Source: Octopus sinensis
Lineage: Eukaryota
Direction of reading: 5' to 3'
DNA: 49,848 nucleotides
Assembly: GCF_006345805.1 (NCBI RefSeq)
Contig: NW_021829890.1
Span: forward strand, 1 to 49,848
The position numbers and the translations under genes were made by a program. Each line of letters opens with the position of its first letter. Position 1 is the first letter of the stretch. Shown in pieces: positions 2,391 through 45,586 of this stretch. Under the pieces are notes generated by a model, which worked only from the letters and a program-made list of their open reading frames with translations, had not been told where the DNA came from and ran no database searches.

Positions 2391-2437
2391 GGTGTACCCC
2401 CTACTGTCACGTTCGTGTTAGATTGACAGTATACAAC

Positions 2438-2497
<60 letters not shown>

Positions 2498-2771
2498 GAA
2501 GCTTCTTTCAGTTCCCGTCTACCAAATCTACTCACAAGGCTTTGGTCGGCCTGAGGCTATAGTAGAAGACACTTGCCCAAGGTGCCACGCAGAAGGACTG
2601 AACCCAGAACCATGTGATTGGTAAGCAAGCTACTTACCACACAGTCGCTCCTGCGCCTATGTGATAATATATAGAACAAAACCACCATAAATGAAGAAAC
2701 TAAGAACCTTTTAACAAGTCCAACCCCACGAAAATGAAGAAAAAAATAGAACGAGAACACAGCCTATATAA

Positions 2772-3647
2772 GATTCTTTTCTACTTTACAAGGCCCGAAA
2801 GTTTGGGAGAGGGAGTGGCAGTCGATTAGATCGACTCCAGTATGTAACTGGTACTTAATTTATCGACCTCGAAAGGATGAAAGGCAAAGTCGACCTCGGC
2901 GGAATTTGAACTCAGAATGTAAAGACAGGCGAAATACCGCTAAGCATTTCGCCCGGGTGCTAACGTTTCTTATTTCTTTACTGCCCACAAGGGGCTAAGC
3001 ATAGAGGGGACGAACAAGCACAGACAACGGGATTAAGTCGATTACATCGACCCAGTGCGCAACAGGTACTTAATTTATCGACCCCGAAAGACGAAATACC
3101 TATTTCTTTACTACCCACAAGGGGCTAAGCACAGAGAGGACAAACAAGGACAGACAACGGGATTAAGTCGATTATATCGACCCAGTGCGCAACATGTACA
3201 TAATTTGTCGACCCCGAAAGACGAAATACCTATTTCTTTACTACCCACAAGGGGCTAAGCACAGAGAGGACAAACAACGACAGACAAACGGATTAAGTCG
3301 ATAATATCGACCCCAGTGCGTAACTGGTACTTATTTAATCGACCCCGAAAGGATGAAAGGCAAAGTCGACCTCGGTGGAATTTGAACTCAGAACGTAAAG
3401 ACAGACGAAATACCTATTTCTTTACTACCCACATGGGGCTAAACACAGAGAGGACAAACAACGACAGACAAACGGATTAAGTCGATAATATCGACCCCAG
3501 TGCGTATCTGGTACTTATTTAATCGACCCCGAAAGGATGAAAGGCAAAGTCGACCTCGGCGGAATTTGAACCCAGAACGTAACGGCAGACGAAATACGGC
3601 TACGCATTTCGCCCGGCGTGCTAACGTTTCTGCCAGCTCGCCGCCTT
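2772..3647 (-). mobile_element. SINE family A, five-unit array
   Basis: One head at 3647; four Tx1-like tails starting near 2971, 3101, 3231 and 3415; an alternative tail near 2775. Confidence 0.88.
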
Positions 3648-4953
3648 ACAGGATGTATACGATTACAAGATATTTCAGATTCACAGACAATCTGCACATC
3701 TTAAACTTGTATCATTTACTGTTCAACACACATCATTATAGTCTCCTTCACAAGTGTTAATAGTGTGTAATCAGACCGAACTCTGATCCCTCGCTGGATC
3801 AATCCACCGAGCTATAAATAGATACCATGGGTAGGTTGTAGCAACATGTTGCAACCAACGATTATCATGACAGCTCACAGTGAGCTCAAATTCTTTTATA
3901 CAACAGAAATTCCCGTTCTCACAGACCAGTCGTGCCAACCACTTTGACTTACATGAGACAGGACCGTCTGTCTTGTTGCTCGATATAACAGCCAAATTTC
4001 CCTCAAATTACACGCAATCGTTTTGAAAAAGAAAGGGAAGATAAGATATAATGAAGTCTAAGTTTACGCTGTTCGAAAGTAAGATGGTTAATTTTATGGG
4101 TGTCTGCCAAGTCAGCCGCCAGACGTCGGAGTTTCAATGTATCCATGCCCAGGGAAGTAAGGCGTTCAGAATATGGCAAATGCCTGATGGAGGGTGAGAA
4201 TAAGCACGGAACTTAAAAATTAGTTCTAGGGTCGATTTGTCCGACTAAAAGCCCCTTCAAGACGGTACCTGAAACCGGTAAAAATTAAAAGAGAAAGATA
4301 GACAGAAATAAGATGATGATGTAGCGTTTATAGAATAATTTCAAACAAACAGCAAAATACCGTGAAAATGAATGTGGCCATTGCAGTAATATTTATAAAA
4401 GAAAGGGATTCCGGAACCTAGGACAGGCAAACATTGTTGAATATTGATTTAATTAACCAAACAATGACAGGGGAGAGAACTCAGAGTAAATTGTAAATTA
4501 TTTAATAGCTAATGCACTGGTGTCCTGGAAGATTAGAAATTCATAATAGGCAACAAGGTTAAAAATAATGAAAATCAGATTGATGATAGGCAAGGGAAAT
4601 AACTGTGGGTATTGTTCAGAGTTTTAAACCTCTTCAGCGAAGTTTAGCTTTTCAAATGTCTGCCAAATAAATGCAGAGAAAGGAATATATGCATATATGT
4701 TGCTTGTATATAGGTCCGTCTGACAAAACAGCATGAAGACAGAGAGGAAATAACACAGGGGCATGATCTGCAGGGAAAATGAATAGATAAGTTGAATGTT
4801 AACACGCGTTTATGTGGGGGGAAACGATAATTTTAATTAATAAAGACAATATCCCTATGAGGAGAAGTAAACACGATAGAAGTGGTAATTAGCAACAGGA
4901 ACAACTTCAACAACAACAACAACGCTTCGTTACACAATGATAACTGCAAGCAA

Positions 4954-5478
4954 TACACACACACACTCTCTCTCTCTCAGACACACACACACACAAGCTC
5001 ACACACACATACTCACACACTCTCTCTCTCACACACTCTCACTCACATACACTCACTCACACACACCACACACACCACACACACACACACACCCTCACAC
5101 ACACACTCACACACACTCTCTCTCTCACACACACACTCTCACACACACACACACACCCTCACACACACACACTCACACACACGCACATAATGACATACAC
5201 ACTCTCACACACACACCTACACACACACATTCACACACTTACACAGACACTCACACACTCACACACCGCACACACTCTCACGCACTCACACACACGCACA
5301 GTCACACACACTCTCACACATACATTCACACACACTCACACACACACTCACACACACCACATGCGCGCGCACCTCGAACAGCAAGCAAATTTACTTATCA
5401 AACACTTTTCCAGAATCACTCATAAAAACTTATACAAATTAGACAAACAGAAGAGAGAGAGAGAGGGGGGGAGAGAGA

Positions 5479-5522
<44 letters not shown>
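4954..5522. repeat. (CA/CT)n and (GA)n microsatellites
   Basis: Seen directly. Confidence 0.95.
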
Positions 5523-5524
<2 letters not shown>

Positions 5525-5848
5525 CGGGAATTCAGGTGTGTTCTCTTGATAAGACAGTAGTCAGATATTCCAATGAATAATTAAGAAGGTGGAGGTGGGT
5601 AGATGACGGCTGAGTGGGACTGTGTATTTGGAAGTGAGAAACAGGTCAAGGATCTGTGCTGTTCATTGGGAAAGAATGACTGTTTCGTTGCTATCAGGTG
5701 CTGGTTGTGTTTTGACGTTCTACAAAAGTGTCTCTTGTTGTGATTGTCGTACTTTGGTGTTGTAGAAAGAGATTATTTTATAGAGATGTTGTTTTAATGT
5801 AGAAAAATGTATCTTGTAGAGATTCCATTTTCGTGTTGTGTTTATCTT

Positions 5849-7205: not shown

Positions 7206-7213
7206 TAGACAGG

Positions 7214-7309
<96 letters not shown>

Positions 7310-8274: not shown

Positions 8275-8361
<87 letters not shown>

Positions 8362-25711: not shown

Positions 25712-25819
<108 letters not shown>

Positions 25820-25823
25820 CAGG

Positions 25824-25905
<82 letters not shown>

Positions 25906-36911: not shown

Positions 36912-37348
36912 TCCAGCTATTACATTAATTGATGTCCTGCTGAGTCGATGGTGCCACAGCGGAGCCGGTGCCTATATCAACTCATGACTCCTAAAACAAA
37001 GGCGGAAGTAATCTATACATTACGATCAAGTGCCATACCGCTTTCTGACGACTCGGAAGAATCAGCCAATACAAACCTTTATATTGAGGCTTATGACTGT
37101 GCTCCCTAACCTTAGCCCTATCAAAGACTTTGCCTTCTTTAAATGATTTTTACTACGGATCCCGGGCATTTTTAAAGGTCTCTCTTTTCAGTAAAATTGT
37201 GAGTCCAATTAGAGAGGTTCAGCTTTGTTTAAAGTCGTAATGTTTGTATACCTTATACCTGCTTTTCATATGCTCGTGCTCATTATACGTATAGACAGAC
37301 AGAAAGACAGACAGACAGACTGACAGGCAGGCAGACAGACAGACAGAC

Positions 37349-37390
<42 letters not shown>

Positions 37391-37791
37391 TAGATAGATA
37401 GATAGATAGATATGTTTCTTTATTAGCCACACAGGGCTGCACACAGATAGAACAAATTACAAGGTAGAGCTTTTCTTTTGAAGGTTTTTAAAAAAAAAAA
37501 AAAAAAGGAAGGGGGAGTTTCGATCAAAAGGGATCGTAAAAGGAGAGAAAGAGGACAAAAAAAGGGGGGTTAAAAAAAAAGGGGGAGAGGAAAAAAAAAA
37601 AAAAATTGATCAATAGGGATCGTTATCACAGAAATGTCAATATGAAGTGTAAAGGAGAGGACAGGTGAGGTTTACCCGTGGAAAGAAAAGCCTACGGAAA
37701 AGACCACGGTAACCTCGGTCAATGGAGTCACATGTTATATTTTTTTTTTTTTTTTTTGCAAATAAGCAACTCTCTGTTTTCAATTCTGGGC

Positions 37792-40700
37792 TCATAGGAT
37801 CATGCTCAAGGTGGCTTCGTCATTCATACGTGCCATTCTTGCTACATTCACCCATCTTTTTTAAAACATTCGCTAGACAAAACTTGCCTCTCTACTCTCA
37901 CTTTCCTTTTCATGGTACTTGAAGAAGTTGATGAGAGATTGACCAGAGAGGAAAGTGTTTGTCTCCATCCTTTCAGACGCGTCCACCAGATACATTCTTT
38001 CGCCATAGCCACAAGGATGATGAAAATAGCTCTTCCTTCCCGTTTGAAGGAGGAGGCGTGACAATATTAACGATAGATTCAGCTGATAAACCGACTCGTC
38101 CCACACGTGACAGCAGTTGTTCGACACAAGCCCACAGGTCGGAAATTGTTGGACACTGCACGAGTGCGTGCAGAACGGTTTCGTCGCTCTGACCGCATCT
38201 CGGGCAGGTCGGCCCCGTGTTTCTCGAGCCGTGTCTGTAGAGCTTATCCCGAACGGGTAGCGCTTCTCGGTAGCACTGCCAGGCCAGGGATCTCTGGAAG
38301 TTGTCCATGGGCCCTGGCCCGAAAGTCGTCCTGAACAGGCGGGTCAGGTACTCCTCGTCGACGTCCAGGTTCGCCCCGAGCTCGTCGTCGTACCTCCCCT
38401 CCACTAAACCCCTATAGAATGCTTTGGTTGTGTTGAAGTCACTCAAGGTCGACCCAGGACGGCAGAGTTGCTTGAGAGCAACGCGACACTCGCGGTGCCA
38501 TTCGCCCTTCTTCGGCCTCTTTTTGATCCACGACTGCAGTTCGGTCATGGAGACGAGCTGCGGGAAAGCGTGCCTCACAAACGGCGACCACACCTGTTCA
38601 CCGTCGTCTACATAGAGCCAGAGATGTCGCAGTCTCAGCGCGTGTCTGCGCATCATCAACCACGGCATGCCCAGCCCTCCTTTTAACGGGTGTTGACAGC
38701 AAATGGATCGCCTGACCATCGGGACGCATCCTTTCCACAAGAAGCGAAAGAGAATGCGTTGTATTTGGTGATGGTAGGGTCGGGACAAGGTACGACGGTC
38801 AGGCGTAGTAGATGACGGACGCGATTTACGTGTTCGCCACCTCCGCCCGACCTTTTAGGGACAGTTCCTCTCGGCCCGTTGCCGGGCGAGAGTGACCACC
38901 CTACTCGTTATCTCGTTCCAGTTCTTCTCCACTTGGAGGTCCGGACCAAACCAGACCCCGAGCAACTCAACCGGGCCGTCGGTCCATCGTCCCACAACGG
39001 AGGCGCTAGTGGACGGCATGGGCTTGCTCTCCAGGTGCCTAGTCGCAAGCCCACTGACTTTTCCCGGTTGATTTTCGCTCCTGTCACCGCTCGTAGTTTT
39101 TCAGTGTCTCGCCGACCTGCTCGATGTGCTCGTGGCTAGACACTATGACGGTGACGTCGTCCGCGTATGCAGACACGCTCGTCCCGCATCCCAGTTCTCG
39201 CGGGATGCCTCTCAAGGTTGCCAGCTCCGCAATAATGGCTCGAGAGTCATACGTATAGAAGCGACGAGAGGGGGCATCCCTGACGGACCGAACGTGCGAT
39301 GTCGAAGGGTCTCGATAGATGTCCATTCACGCGAATTACCGAACGGATGCCTCTGTACAAAGCGGCTATCCAGCCGCGGAAGACGGGACCGAAGCCAGCC
39401 GCTCCGAGGACCGCCTCCAAGTATCGATGGTCCACCCTATCGAAAGCTTTCGATTGATCCAAATTGATCAACGCCCCACCCATGCCAGGTTCGTTAACTA
39501 CCCTGTCTATGATGTAGCGCATCAGGTGGAGGTTGTCATGGATGGTCCGGCCTGGCACGGCGCATGTTTGCGCCCTGTCGACCAGTTTCTCGATGACAAG
39601 CGCCAACCTCTTGGCTAGCACCTCGGCCAAAATTTTCAAGTCTGCATTAAGCAGAGTGATGGGCCTAAAGTTATCTATTACATTTCCCTTGTTTAGATCT
39701 TTCTTCAGCAGTGTTACGGCTCCTCGGCTCACAAACCAGGAATGCTCCGTTTTGCTGCCAGTTGCAGTACACCGCCGCCAAGAGATCTCCAAACAAGTCT
39801 GGCATACAATTGTAAAGCTCGTAGGGTAGACCATCCAAACCCGGTGATTTGTCCCCCGAGCATTCTGCCATCGCTTCCTTGCACTTCCGCCGCCGTGATG
39901 GCACCTTCGCAGCACCCTGCCTTTCTTGTCGAGAGTCGTGGTAGGCTATGTAGGTAGGCACTGAAGTCCACCCTACGTTCTTGCCCTCCACTCGTTCCGA
40001 ACAGTCGGGCAAAATGCTGCTGAAAGGCCTCACACATTTTACTTGGCTCGAGCAATTCGCGCCCCTGTTCATCTACCAGGGACCGAATGGTGGCTTTGTT
40101 GCCCTGTTGCGCCTCTGCCACCCGGGCCTCTCTCGCGGCTCCAACACCTTCGTTCCTTAGAGCACGCATCCTAGCTCTGACAGCACATCCTTCGTGTTTG
40201 GCGTTGAAGTGTTGGTCGAGGGCCAACCTCGCCGCCAAAACGTCGGATGCGATGCCGCTTCTAATTGCCTCTTCTAGCTTCTTAACTAGCTCACCCTCTA
40301 CTCTATTTCTATCTATGGCTAGTGCTTTGCTGTACCTAATCGCTTCTGCTTTAACTGCTCTCTTGAGGGCAAACCACCATTTGTTGTTGATGATGGCTCC
40401 CGTCAAAGCCCTCTTTACTAGTGTGCTAATCCGGTCTCTGAAAACCTGTCTCGATGGGAAAGACGCGTTTAGTTTCCAGTATCCGGGACCTGCCTAAGTG
40501 TCTTACCTAAGTCTAGCGTACATGTCACAAGTTTGTGATCCGTGTAGCTGACTATGTGGAATTGTGGACATCCTATGCTATCTCTGTCTACTGTCCTACA
40601 CAGTATCCTATCTAGATACGATCTCGACGACCCGATGCGGTTGCTCCATGTCCACGTTGGCGCATTCGGGTGGTCTAGTCGGAACCTGTCAGACAGTTGG

Positions 40701-41216
40701 AATCGTCTGAGCAGGTCTCTGAGGCATTTGCATCCCCTTCTGTTTCTGTCTCTACCCACGTAGTCTACATGCGTGTCCAAGGTAGCATTCCAATCCCCCA
40801 CTAAGAGTAAAGGACGAGACGTTCCCAAGAATACTTCTAGACGTTGAAAGAAATCCGCCCGACCTGTTAAGGGCGGTGCGTAGACTGATACGAGTCGAAA
40901 AGCGCACCCATTGCTGCCGTCGACATCCATCCAGGACGACCAGTCTACCCTCCGGGTCTACGAATATTGTCCTTACTTTGAGATCCAGACTCTTGTGAAA
41001 AGTACCGCGGTGCCACTACCGCCCATTCTCGGCAGACAGGGGGAAAAATAATGTTGAACTGTCCGCCAAACATGTCTTTAGGGCCCGCGGATTGTGGAGT
41101 CTGGTCTCACTTATGGCTATGATTTCTAACTTATGTGACTTTATGTCATTTAAGAGGTACCCTTGTTTCCAGGGGGACCCCAAGCCACGCGCATTTACAC
41201 AACCAATCTTGATCAT
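37792..41216 (-). pseudogene. Retrotransposon ORF2 (APE endonuclease + reverse transcriptase), frameshifted
   Basis: APE motifs MIKIGCVNARGL, IAISETRL, LLVGDWNA, SYLDRIL, YTDHKLV. RT motifs KSPGLDG, FRPITLLNADLK, DQSKAFDRVDH, VRQGCPLS, YADD. C-terminal CPRCGQSDETVLHALVQC. Last frame ends ...ATLSMIL* at 37792. Confidence 0.93.
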
Positions 41217-41256
41217 AGTCCTAATGAATTAGAATACAAGTGAAAGGAACAGAGGG

Positions 41257-43253
41257 TTACTTACTGCTCGAAAGTTTTTGCTTTCTCCTCCTTTGGTTTG
41301 TCCTCGGGAGATCCCAGTACAGTTTTTTTGTGAGATATTTTTGGCATTTACCAACCGCGCTGGGAAAATGCCTTTGAGTGTGTGGTGCAACTTTTGGAGA
41401 TGTGTAATATTTGATGTGGTCTGGTGGTGTTGTGTATGGGTGATTGTTTGTTTTTATGTCATCTTCTGTTATGTTTGTTTTTGATTGGATGTATTCCATC
41501 AAATTTGTGTTTTTGGTGTCTATAGCTGTGAGCATGTTTGCTGTATATATTTTTGTGGTGTTGGTGTGGCTGTTGTTTGCGTTGGGTTTTGAAATGTCTT
41601 CGGGAGATGTATTTCCCCCTGCTTTGTTCGTGTTTGCATTGGTTTGGTTGTGTTTTCTCTGCTCTTTATTTTCCTTCTTTTTGTAGCTATTTGCCATTCC
41701 TCACTGGTTTCGTCTTCCGACGAAATTTCTGAGGAATCAGTAAGGGGTAGGGGTATTTGTGGGCTTCTATGTATGTCTGTGTAAGTGGTTGTGTTGTTGT
41801 TTTCGTTGTTGTTGGTTGTTGAGTGTTTGTGTGTGTTGAGTGCGGTATAAGGGATGTGGGATCAGTTTGTGTGTGTTTTCTTTGTTTTTCTGTTCCTTTG
41901 GGTTTTGCTGTTGTTGGTGGTGTTGGTATTTTTCAGGTTGAGTGGTTTTTGGTTGATGACGGATTAGCTTGGTGTGCTTCTCTTGTCGTCTTCTGTGTTG
42001 ATGGTGGTGTGGGTAGTAGAGCTTTTTTTTCGGAGTGCTTTGGTTGTGTAGTGGTTGTTGTGTTGCTCTGGTGTGCAGTGGTTGGGCACGTCTTTTTCAA
42101 GTGTGTTTCGCTTCCACACAAATAGCAGCGTGGTCGCCTGCTCTCTACCACTATATAGAGTTTGTAGCCTCCTGGCAGTTCTATAGCGGTGGGTATCTTC
42201 TCTCTTGCTGCTTCATCCAATTGAAGCAGGAATTCGATTGATTTGCCCACATAGTCTTTCTCTCCTAGAACCGCGATTTCCAGGATGTTTGTCTCTGACA
42301 TTGTCTCTGTCATTTCAAAGCAGATGGCAGAGACCAACCATTGTGTTTCGACATCAAATGGTATGTTTTTTATTTGGACTTTCGTGACCCTTTTGTTTAA
42401 ATAGACTGGTATTCATTACCAAGTCGTCCGAATGCAGCTCCAATGTGGAAAAACGTTTTGCTAAACTTTCGTGAGGAAACGTACTGGACTGTACCAAATT
42501 TGTTTCCCCAGCTGCTATATTCCTTGGAGTCCATGCAGGACGAAGGCATTTCGATTTTTTCCTGCGGTGCATTTTCTGTTCTTCCTGTTTTCTTGTTTAT
42601 TACTTTATAAATTATTGGGTTTTTTTGTGTGTTTTCCACGATGTGTTGTGGAATGTGAAGGTGCAATTTGTCTCCTTCTTTGGAGAAGAGTGCCTTTGTG
42701 CGGTTTATCTCTTGTGTGGTGAATGTTACAATTGTTCTTTTTTGTTTTGTTACGTCCGCAAAATTCGTTTTGAATTTGGCAGTAGAAATGTTAATTGTGG
42801 CAGGTGAAGTCATGGTAGTAGTGTTGGTGTTGGCGGTATTAGCAGCAGAAGGCTTGGATGTAGCATTTGACGTCGTAGTAGTGGTGTTGGTGTTGGCGGT
42901 GTGTCTTTGGTAGGCGGCTTTGTGCCAATTTCGTTGTTGTTGTTGGTGGTGGTGATGGTGGTGGTGCTGGCATTCATGTTTTCGTTTGTATTCATTTTTG
43001 AAATCCCTTTCTCTGTCCCTTTATCATCAACAAGTGGTGTGGGGAGTGAGGGGAAATCTAAGTTAATGTCTTTGGTCGCGGCGATGGTGAATGCGACGTT
43101 AGTTTTGTTGTTGTTGTTGGTGGTGGTGGTGGTGATGGTGGTGACAGCGGTGTTCACGCTGCGATGTTTAGCAGCTAGTGGTAGCGATAGTGTTTTGCTA
43201 CCGTTCTGCATGACTGGCAGGCTAGCCACGTGGTTTCTAGTTGCCATTTTCAA
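41257..43253 (-). pseudogene. Retrotransposon ORF1 (gag-like nucleic-acid-binding protein), frameshifted
   Basis: Chained minus-strand ORFs 42810-43253, 42397-42813, 42354-42572, 41933-42337, 41257-41697. CX2CX4HX4C knuckle CYLCGSETHLKKTC; Thr/Asn/Lys-rich low-complexity ends. Confidence 0.75.
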
Positions 43254-43464
43254 AATGAAAAATGGCTAAAAAACCCACGAAAGTTTTGAAAGTTTTTTTG
43301 TAATTTCGCCCATACAGGGGCGGAATTCTACGTGAATAATTCTCAGGTTTTTTAGTGAATGAACTTGCACAACGATTAAAACAAAATATTTGACAGCAAG
43401 GAGTTTTAAACATGTAAAAGTGGCCAACTTACGTGGAGCCAATATGACTAGCGTCCGTCCATTT

Positions 43465-43755
<291 letters not shown>

Positions 43756-45361: not shown

Positions 45362-45393
<32 letters not shown>

Positions 45394-45437
45394 GATAGAT
45401 AGATAGATAGATAGATAGAGAGATGAGAGAGAGAGAG

Positions 45438-45516
<79 letters not shown>

Positions 45517-45586
45517 TAGATATAGATATACATAGAGGGAGAGGGAGAGAGAGGGGGAGGCAGATACACACATACGCGCGCGCGCA

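Follow-up and report, generated by a model that had tools for sequence, protein, structure and literature searches.

A Tx1-like retrotransposon family of Octopus sinensis that lies mostly in (TATC)n microsatellites, in one orientation, as a probable target

The window analysed here is a whole stretch of 49,848 nucleotides of Octopus sinensis DNA (assembly GCF_006345805.1, contig NW_021829890.1, positions 1 to 49,848), and it carries a full-length copy of a retrotransposon without long terminal repeats (a non-LTR element) lying between two GATA microsatellite arrays. A sequence-only reading of the window had described this copy as a Tx1-like element apparently targeted to (GATA)n, and the flanks that we tabulated at other copies of the family bear out the preference for (GATA)n/(TATC)n. 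The features of the locus are the following, with open reading frames given as ORFs and untranslated regions as UTRs.

37413..43464, reverse strand: full-length non-LTR retrotransposon copy, 6052 bp, L1 group and Tx1-like, with two ORFs that are both frameshifted in the assembly
43465..43692, forward strand: compound (GATA)n array of the 5' flank with GGTA and GACA blocks, reading (TATC)n on the element strand
to 43755, forward strand: (CATA)n after the 5'-flank GATA array
43248..43464, reverse strand: 5' UTR
41264..43247, reverse strand: ORF1, with Thr/Asn-rich ends; its intact form, in copy L098, has 665 aa
about 42083-42130, reverse strand: single zinc knuckle of ORF1, CX2CX4HX4C (zf-CCHC families at E 0.008 and 0.06, below the cut-off)
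37795..41216, reverse strand: ORF2; its intact form, in copy L117, has 1145 aa (protein P0204)
40500..41216, reverse strand: apurinic endonuclease (APE)-type domain, by Pfam and by a model match to the L1 endonuclease
38956..39699, reverse strand: reverse transcriptase (RT) domain, bounds approximate (PF00078, E 1e-30)
38132..38290, reverse strand: C-terminal zf-RVT zinc finger (PF13966, E 2.5e-8)
37413..37791, reverse strand: 3' UTR, T/C-rich and without poly(A)
37419..37424, reverse strand: AATAAA, 6 nt ahead of the 3' junction
37293..37412, forward strand: 3'-flank array, (GACA)n and then (GATA)n at 37333-37412, found with Tandem Repeats Finder (TRF)

The (GATA)n repeat stops at 37412 and restarts at 43465 (TRF arrays 37333-37412 and 43465-43692), and on the element strand both flanks read (TATC)n. 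The two termini therefore abut the repeat in the same orientation, as had been read from the sequence, and the 3' end is also as it had been described: poly(A) is absent, and the AATAAA at 37419-37424 is followed by GAAACA and then by (TATC)n. The proposed boundaries hold at the 3' side, where 37413 is common to 28 of 30 loci by BLAST span, the remaining two starting one base inward. The 5' tip is less sharp, since most full-length copies begin with (T)CTCAC-AATGG and the window copy reads TATC-A-AATGG, so that its position relative to the array can be given only to within a few bases. Translation of the window gave fragments of the two ORFs, with Pfam matches to the endonuclease, the RT and zf-RVT and a weak zinc knuckle. 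When the window ORF2 is aligned to the intact copy over 3440 columns, 65 mismatches and 19 gap openings are counted; because 19 of its 23 indel bases adjoin the same base, its frameshifts may be long-read assembly errors. No Rfam match was found anywhere in the window, and a hairpin at the element 3' end was without support (z = 0.61).

The genome (G000, 2.72 Gb) was probed with the 3' end (1816 candidates), with internal pieces (1133 and 1751) and with the 5' end (590), figures that are not copy numbers. The best 40 candidates of each probe were scored and 76 loci were fetched, 39 via the 5'-end probe and 37 via an internal probe. In a strict test, which asked that the 30 nt upstream of the 5' boundary contain three TATC units, 38 of 40 full-length boundaries were positive. 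A first sample of truncated copies (at least 85% identity over at least 100 nt), from which a fixed rule removed 11 of 52 boundaries because they were internal breaks or joints of inversions, gave 33/41 in the strict and 35/41 in a relaxed test, with no case in the opposite orientation and with breakpoints spread from position 2415 to 5733. A second sample, taken with the internal probe and without any exclusion, gave 26/33 for truncated and 2/4 for full-length copies in the strict test, again with none in the opposite orientation. When inspected by eye, the strict misses were mostly variant arrays or alignment breaks. In 20 arbitrary 10-kb stretches the strict test was positive at 670 of 398,400 strand-positions (0.17%); for the relaxed test the background was 107 of 20,000 positions (0.5%). 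GATA/TATC arrays made up 0.24% of this 200 kb background, against 1.6% for AT, 1.0% for AAT and 0.7% for AC, so that the latter are 3 to 6 times commoner. The sole copy of the family met in the background draw (82-89% identical) had TATC on either side. The four further GATA arrays of the window (7206-7309, 8275-8360, 25712-25905 and 45371-45522) have no adjoining ORF2-like sequence.

Since the points of 5' truncation, where a tail would not appear, mostly abut TATC, the (TATC)n repeat is an insertion target and not only a tail. The sequence-only reading had held that TATC would be just a tail if most copies had non-GATA 5' flanks; such flanks are the minority in both truncated samples (33/41 and 26/33 with TATC) and among the 40 full-length boundaries. 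By genomic criteria the family is target-specific: Kojima's criterion of target preference for Tx1-type elements, in the part of PMC4494074 at hand, is the target in more than 20% of flanks, and here it occurs at 79-95% of 5' junctions. The 3' junctions read AGAAA-CATATCT in 83 of 101 cases, and the perfect repeat run that follows was below 8 nt in 20, 8-15 nt in 32, 16-39 nt in 26 and at least 40 nt in 23, so that no fixed 3' tail is present. Moreover, in 62 truncated copies the perfect run was of similar length on either side (medians 20.5 and 19 nt, p = 0.43), which is what insertion into a pre-existing array would give. In contigs from four public runs of four studies, TATC repeat was the largest listed class past the 3' end (111, 54, 54 and 76 contigs), counts in which related families with a common tail are included.

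Head-to-tail stacks, in which each copy lies in the TATC flank of the preceding one, were seen at L023, L030, L065, L069, L103, L109, L114 and L126, and at L114 one compound array motif is repeated after three successive 3' ends.

The junctions give some indication of where the DNA may be cut. Among the clean 5' junctions of truncated copies, 31 of 40 are compatible with a break after ATCT, and 9 of the 14 unambiguous ones end in ATCT (p = 0.002). Because of this preference the second-strand break can be tentatively placed at the T/A step of TATCT/ATCT, and the 3' junction is compatible with the same step. Duplications that contain a non-repeat base were found in 3 of 65 truncated copies when exact (8-15 bp; 0.36 expected) and in 5 of 65 with slack (0.65 expected). 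Long target duplications of 80-250 bp were considered and rejected: 7 of 67 loci scored at least 15, compared with 1.3% of mismatched pairs, but insertion-free arrays cut in half scored as often (9/31) as arrays across insertions (6/23), and the signal was attributed to higher-order repeat structure. Transduction of arrays between loci at the 3' end was also rejected, 107 flanks sharing only plain TGTC/TACC runs and one tandem pair. Twin priming is a mechanism of 5' inversion, and L098 and L067 look like apparent inversions of this kind, whose outer end adjoins a TATC array. About 10 nt of TATC repeat are attached to the inverted 5' tip at the internal joint of L098, a single case which hints that the element RNA perhaps starts in upstream TATC repeat.

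The ORF2 protein of L117 (P0204, 1145 aa) matches, over Pfam cut-offs, the endonuclease at residues 20-208 (PF03372), the RT at 507-756 (PF00078) and zf-RVT at 979-1031 (PF13966). Residues D141, N143, D202, D226 and H227 of the endonuclease are invariant among 50 relatives, and its structural model (pLDDT 93.5) has the L1 endonuclease as best fold match (TM 0.8); the fold and the catalytic residues are thus predicted to be intact. The whole ORF1 product (665 aa) had no Pfam match and shows one CCHC knuckle.

Among the 76 loci, three (L117, L249 and L272) have an uninterrupted ORF2 and L119 has an almost uninterrupted one; L098 and L243 have an uninterrupted ORF1, and no copy has both open. Substitutions of ORF2 relative to L117 (36 loci and the window) have a median of 0.26% (range 0-2.1%), with a median of 10 gap openings. 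Given this low substitution together with many gaps, we infer that the family is very young and that many of the frameshifts across its copies are assembly errors. The closest named relatives, compared over the RT piece, are in Argonauta hians (73%) and Acanthosepion pharaonis (57%), which points to an octopod as the likely host. Twenty public runs, from 9 studies and under five organism labels, contain half or more of the words of one locus; no RNA run was listed among the public runs holding locus words, and no relative was confirmed in metagenome contigs.

A second subfamily, 87-93% identical (L242, L244-L246, L250, L251, L256 and L084), ends in GCCAATAAAGAAAC-T, not in GCTAATAAAGAAAC-A, and keeps the TATC target. 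The same element of about 330 bp, resembling a short interspersed element (SINE), sits inside two full-length copies (L100:2800-3128 and L106:5137-5465). The best RVT_1 matches of the assembly (L159-L183) belong to a distinct clade of long interspersed elements (LINEs) with long open frames, lie almost all on unplaced contigs and possibly come from a co-sequenced organism.

Altogether, we consider, with a probability of about 0.8, that this is a young and abundant L1-group, and likely Tx1-clade, LINE family that enters (TATC)n/(GATA)n in one orientation, likely through an APE endonuclease that nicks the GATA strand and primes there. The endonuclease would nick the GATA strand, likely at a T/A step, and the end of a non-polyadenylated RNA, likely reaching a few bases into UAUC repeats, would pair with the freed DNA end and be copied. 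The TATC strand would be cut mostly at the same T/A step (TATCT/ATCT), so that a duplication would be lacking or would be short and masked by the repeat. An old copy would then offer, in its 3' flank, a further target, which would produce head-to-tail stacking. The benefit of such a target is likely a plentiful and low-cost landing site.

Several observations weigh against this interpretation or limit it. The overlap between the element end and the repeat masks the first-strand nick at the 3' junction, which therefore cannot be positioned. Target duplications appear to be usually short or absent, since most of the 29 truncated copies with a non-repeat base within 16 nt of the 3' flank have no duplication reaching that base. 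An empty allele was not found in the assembly, where neither flank has a second near-identical copy, nor in the public runs, where contigs break at the arrays or miss the flank, and the presence of the array before insertion is therefore deduced indirectly. By eye, about four copies are truly off target (L023 and L028 in the first sample, L255 and L272 in the second), and a TA-rich class comes second among the contigs past the 3' end (39, 25, 22 and 30, with related families mixed in). Furthermore, the samples are the best 30-40 matches per search out of 590-1816 candidates and are skewed to young copies, and the pairs L068/L069 and L242/L256 are duplicates that stand for one event each.

A rather unlikely alternative is that specificity comes mainly from the RNA, a relaxed nuclease nicking many T/A steps of which only those in GATA can pair with UAUC read-through. 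The lack of poly(A), the overlap of the element end with the repeat and the TA-rich 3' flanks would all fit such a process, as would a sister family, described below, that likewise ends just past AATAA and enters its own target. The literature cuts both ways: in the available part of PMC1950540, grafting the betaB6-betaB5 hairpin loop, which is implicated in target read-out, only partly worked and did not by itself move APE specificity, but the Tx1L endonuclease alone nicks almost only its own target in vitro. In addition, 20 of the 101 3' junctions have less than 8 nt of perfect repeat and would offer little pairing, and the phase preference at the second-strand junction speaks against a relaxed nuclease. 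Pairing of this sort may nevertheless be combined with the endonuclease-led mechanism that we favour.

It is much less probable that the arrays are made by the element, with RT slippage adding TATC at both ends of insertions into ordinary sites. No empty site was seen, the 5' tips carry irregular TC-rich extra bases, and full-length copies have a longer perfect run on the 5' side (31 vs 15 nt, p = 0.014), all of which slippage could explain. However, the arrays in the flanks are compound, contain blocks of TGTC, TACC and TCCA and often extend over hundreds of bases, the 3' run may consist of just one unit, non-repeat bases do occur within some short duplications, distant loci share no 3' flank with distinctive variants, and unoccupied GATA arrays are common. 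Random insertion followed by survival or build-up of copies in GATA arrays, as proposed for Drosophila Waldo-A/B near CA repeats (PMC3812793, in part), is hardly credible here: it is contradicted by the single orientation and the preferred phase in which the copies adjoin the array, to the exact base, and the copies are also very young and are not seen in the commoner AC and AAT arrays.

Concerning its placement, the element has the domain layout of the L1 group, with an N-terminal APE endonuclease, an RT and a C-terminal zinc finger in ORF2, and the sampled loci show the 5' truncation with intact 3' ends typical of that group. P0204 scores 334 bits to Xenopus Tx1L (P14381), 182 to human L1 and 75 to R2, and Tx1L itself scores 263 bits to human L1. 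On these sequence grounds we assign the element to the L1 group of non-LTR retrotransposons, which comprises L1 and Tx1. In a 25-row RT tree the query, the sister family and Argonauta form a group (95/99) within a six-row group that includes Sepia (95/100), Tx1L and four rows from fish or turtles make up a vertebrate group of their own (100/100), and three other LINE RTs of the assembly are split off (100/100). The backbone is a polytomy that contains the most L1-like row, P0291, vertebrate L1 not being among the rows; in a quick 63-row tree P0291 fell outside at an SH-aLRT of only 90. The Tx1-like label of the sequence-only reading thus stands as to the L1 group and the higher score to Tx1L than to human L1, but membership of the Tx1 clade in the strict sense is no more than likely.

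A place in the Kibi/Koshi lineage is not supported. Targets of that type are (TC)n, (TTC)n, (TTCC)n or (TTTC)n, and the present one is (TATC)n; nor did the RT nest with fish and crocodilian Tx1 families in the tree, among whose rows named Kibi or Koshi sequences were unconfirmed. Since the query RT lies outside the vertebrate group with Tx1L and Tetraodon BAC82605, microsatellite targeting may have arisen separately from that of vertebrate Tx1 elements. In the limpet Patella caerulea, 11 related ORF2 proteins (the P0211 cluster, SNE40_003393 to 003415) fall into a single 90% cluster, and their locus tags follow one another almost without gaps on a contig of chromosome size; this arrangement suggests that a relative, possibly a site-specific one, is arrayed there in tandem.

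The sister family, found via the background draw, is also Tx1-like (L184:2100-5760; L134, L187-L211) and is 65% identical to the GATA family in the RT and 44% in the endonuclease. It has 575 candidates in the genome, and the loci considered are one near 60.005-60.011 Mb of G000:C3 and 24 others. The probe extended about 7 bases into the flank, and in the 25 loci each of the 23 3' ends that could be read passes from AATAA into one fixed non-TATC sequence, TATC being found at 0 of these 23; the sister family thus serves as a control for the TATC preference of the GATA family. For most loci the 3' flank is a long stretch of a tRNA-like SINE, recognised by eye through motifs resembling A and B boxes, with the site in the SINE head. 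At L191, L196 and L134, the last of which is full-length, the SINE head also lies ahead of the 5' junction, and L191 and L134 have an apparent duplication of about 15 bp. The betaB6-betaB5 loop has 9 residues in both families, with differing sequences. Tandem units of 130-184 bp at 699-1012 and 2971-3597 of the window resemble an abundant short interspersed repeat seen beside L134.

Several known elements resemble the one described here. Human LINE-1 nicks at a T/A step with a loose TTTT/AA consensus and has a poly(A) tail. Its ORF2p is the best PDB match by sequence (182 bits) and by endonuclease fold (TM 0.8); the octopus element differs in that it lacks poly(A), has a zinc knuckle in ORF1 and strongly prefers a repeat. 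Tx1L of Xenopus laevis, which targets the Tx1D transposon, shares the two ORFs, the APE, RT and zinc finger domains and site specificity. It is 29% identical to P0204 over 922 columns (row P0462), with an ORF2 of 1308 aa instead of 1145 aa and a betaB6-betaB5 loop of 11 instead of 9 residues (anchors taken from the accessible part of PMC1950540).

Microsatellites have been reported as targets before. Kibi for (TC)n and Koshi for (TTC)n of teleosts, which the sequence-only reading had cited correctly, and crocodilian Tx1 families for (TTCC)n/(TTTC)n are described in the sections of PMC4494074 and, for the first two targets, PMC3812793 that were available. These too are APE-type L1-group LINEs specific for microsatellites, with tetranucleotide targets known in crocodilians; their targets are pure pyrimidine/purine repeats, whereas the octopus element has a TATC/GATA target and a mollusc host. 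The available text of PMC3812793 names ACAY, AC, TC, TTC and TAA as microsatellite targets, with GATA not among them; it lists Waldo for (ACAY)n, Mino for (AC)n and Dong for (TAA)n, Waldo and Mino being of the R1 clade by a cited title, and the NeSL-related Togen uses (TG)n (PMC4640811, in part). Waldo, Mino, Dong and Togen are likewise microsatellite-targeting non-LTR retrotransposons, but belong to other clades and use other repeats. Dong is a member of the R4 clade. Thirteen recently active L1-Tx1 families are present in Octopus vulgaris, with no targets given in the portion of PMC13282606 at hand, and those of PMC10294476 and PMC2684134 add nothing on targets. A LINE targeting GATA/TATC was not found in the literature searched, a scope outside which lie Repbase, Dfam, subscription papers and the supplements of PMC4494074.

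The principle of microsatellite targeting by Tx1 elements is thus already known, and the present family appears to represent a new target and a new host lineage for this strategy, extending the range of Tx1-like targets by a mixed-base repeat and that of the hosts by a mollusc. In octopods, GATA marker loci can be split by insertions of 1-6 kb. The recognition of microsatellites by APE-type LINEs is called poorly understood in the part of PMC3812793 available, and the question of APE specificity is testable by swaps of domains or loops, because the family is young, has copies with intact ORF2, has a target with a 4-bp period and has a close sister with another target. As a tentative and rather speculative proposal, octopods may have their own L1/Tx1-like radiation apart from Kibi/Koshi, in which close sisters would have retargeted one endonuclease scaffold between GATA and a SINE site, and the GATA family would be active now, with RNAs that lack poly(A) and begin and end in TATC, the target serving as both primer-binding site and transcript boundary. 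If this is true, the GATA family and its SINE-targeting sister would be a natural pair for mapping the determinants of APE specificity.

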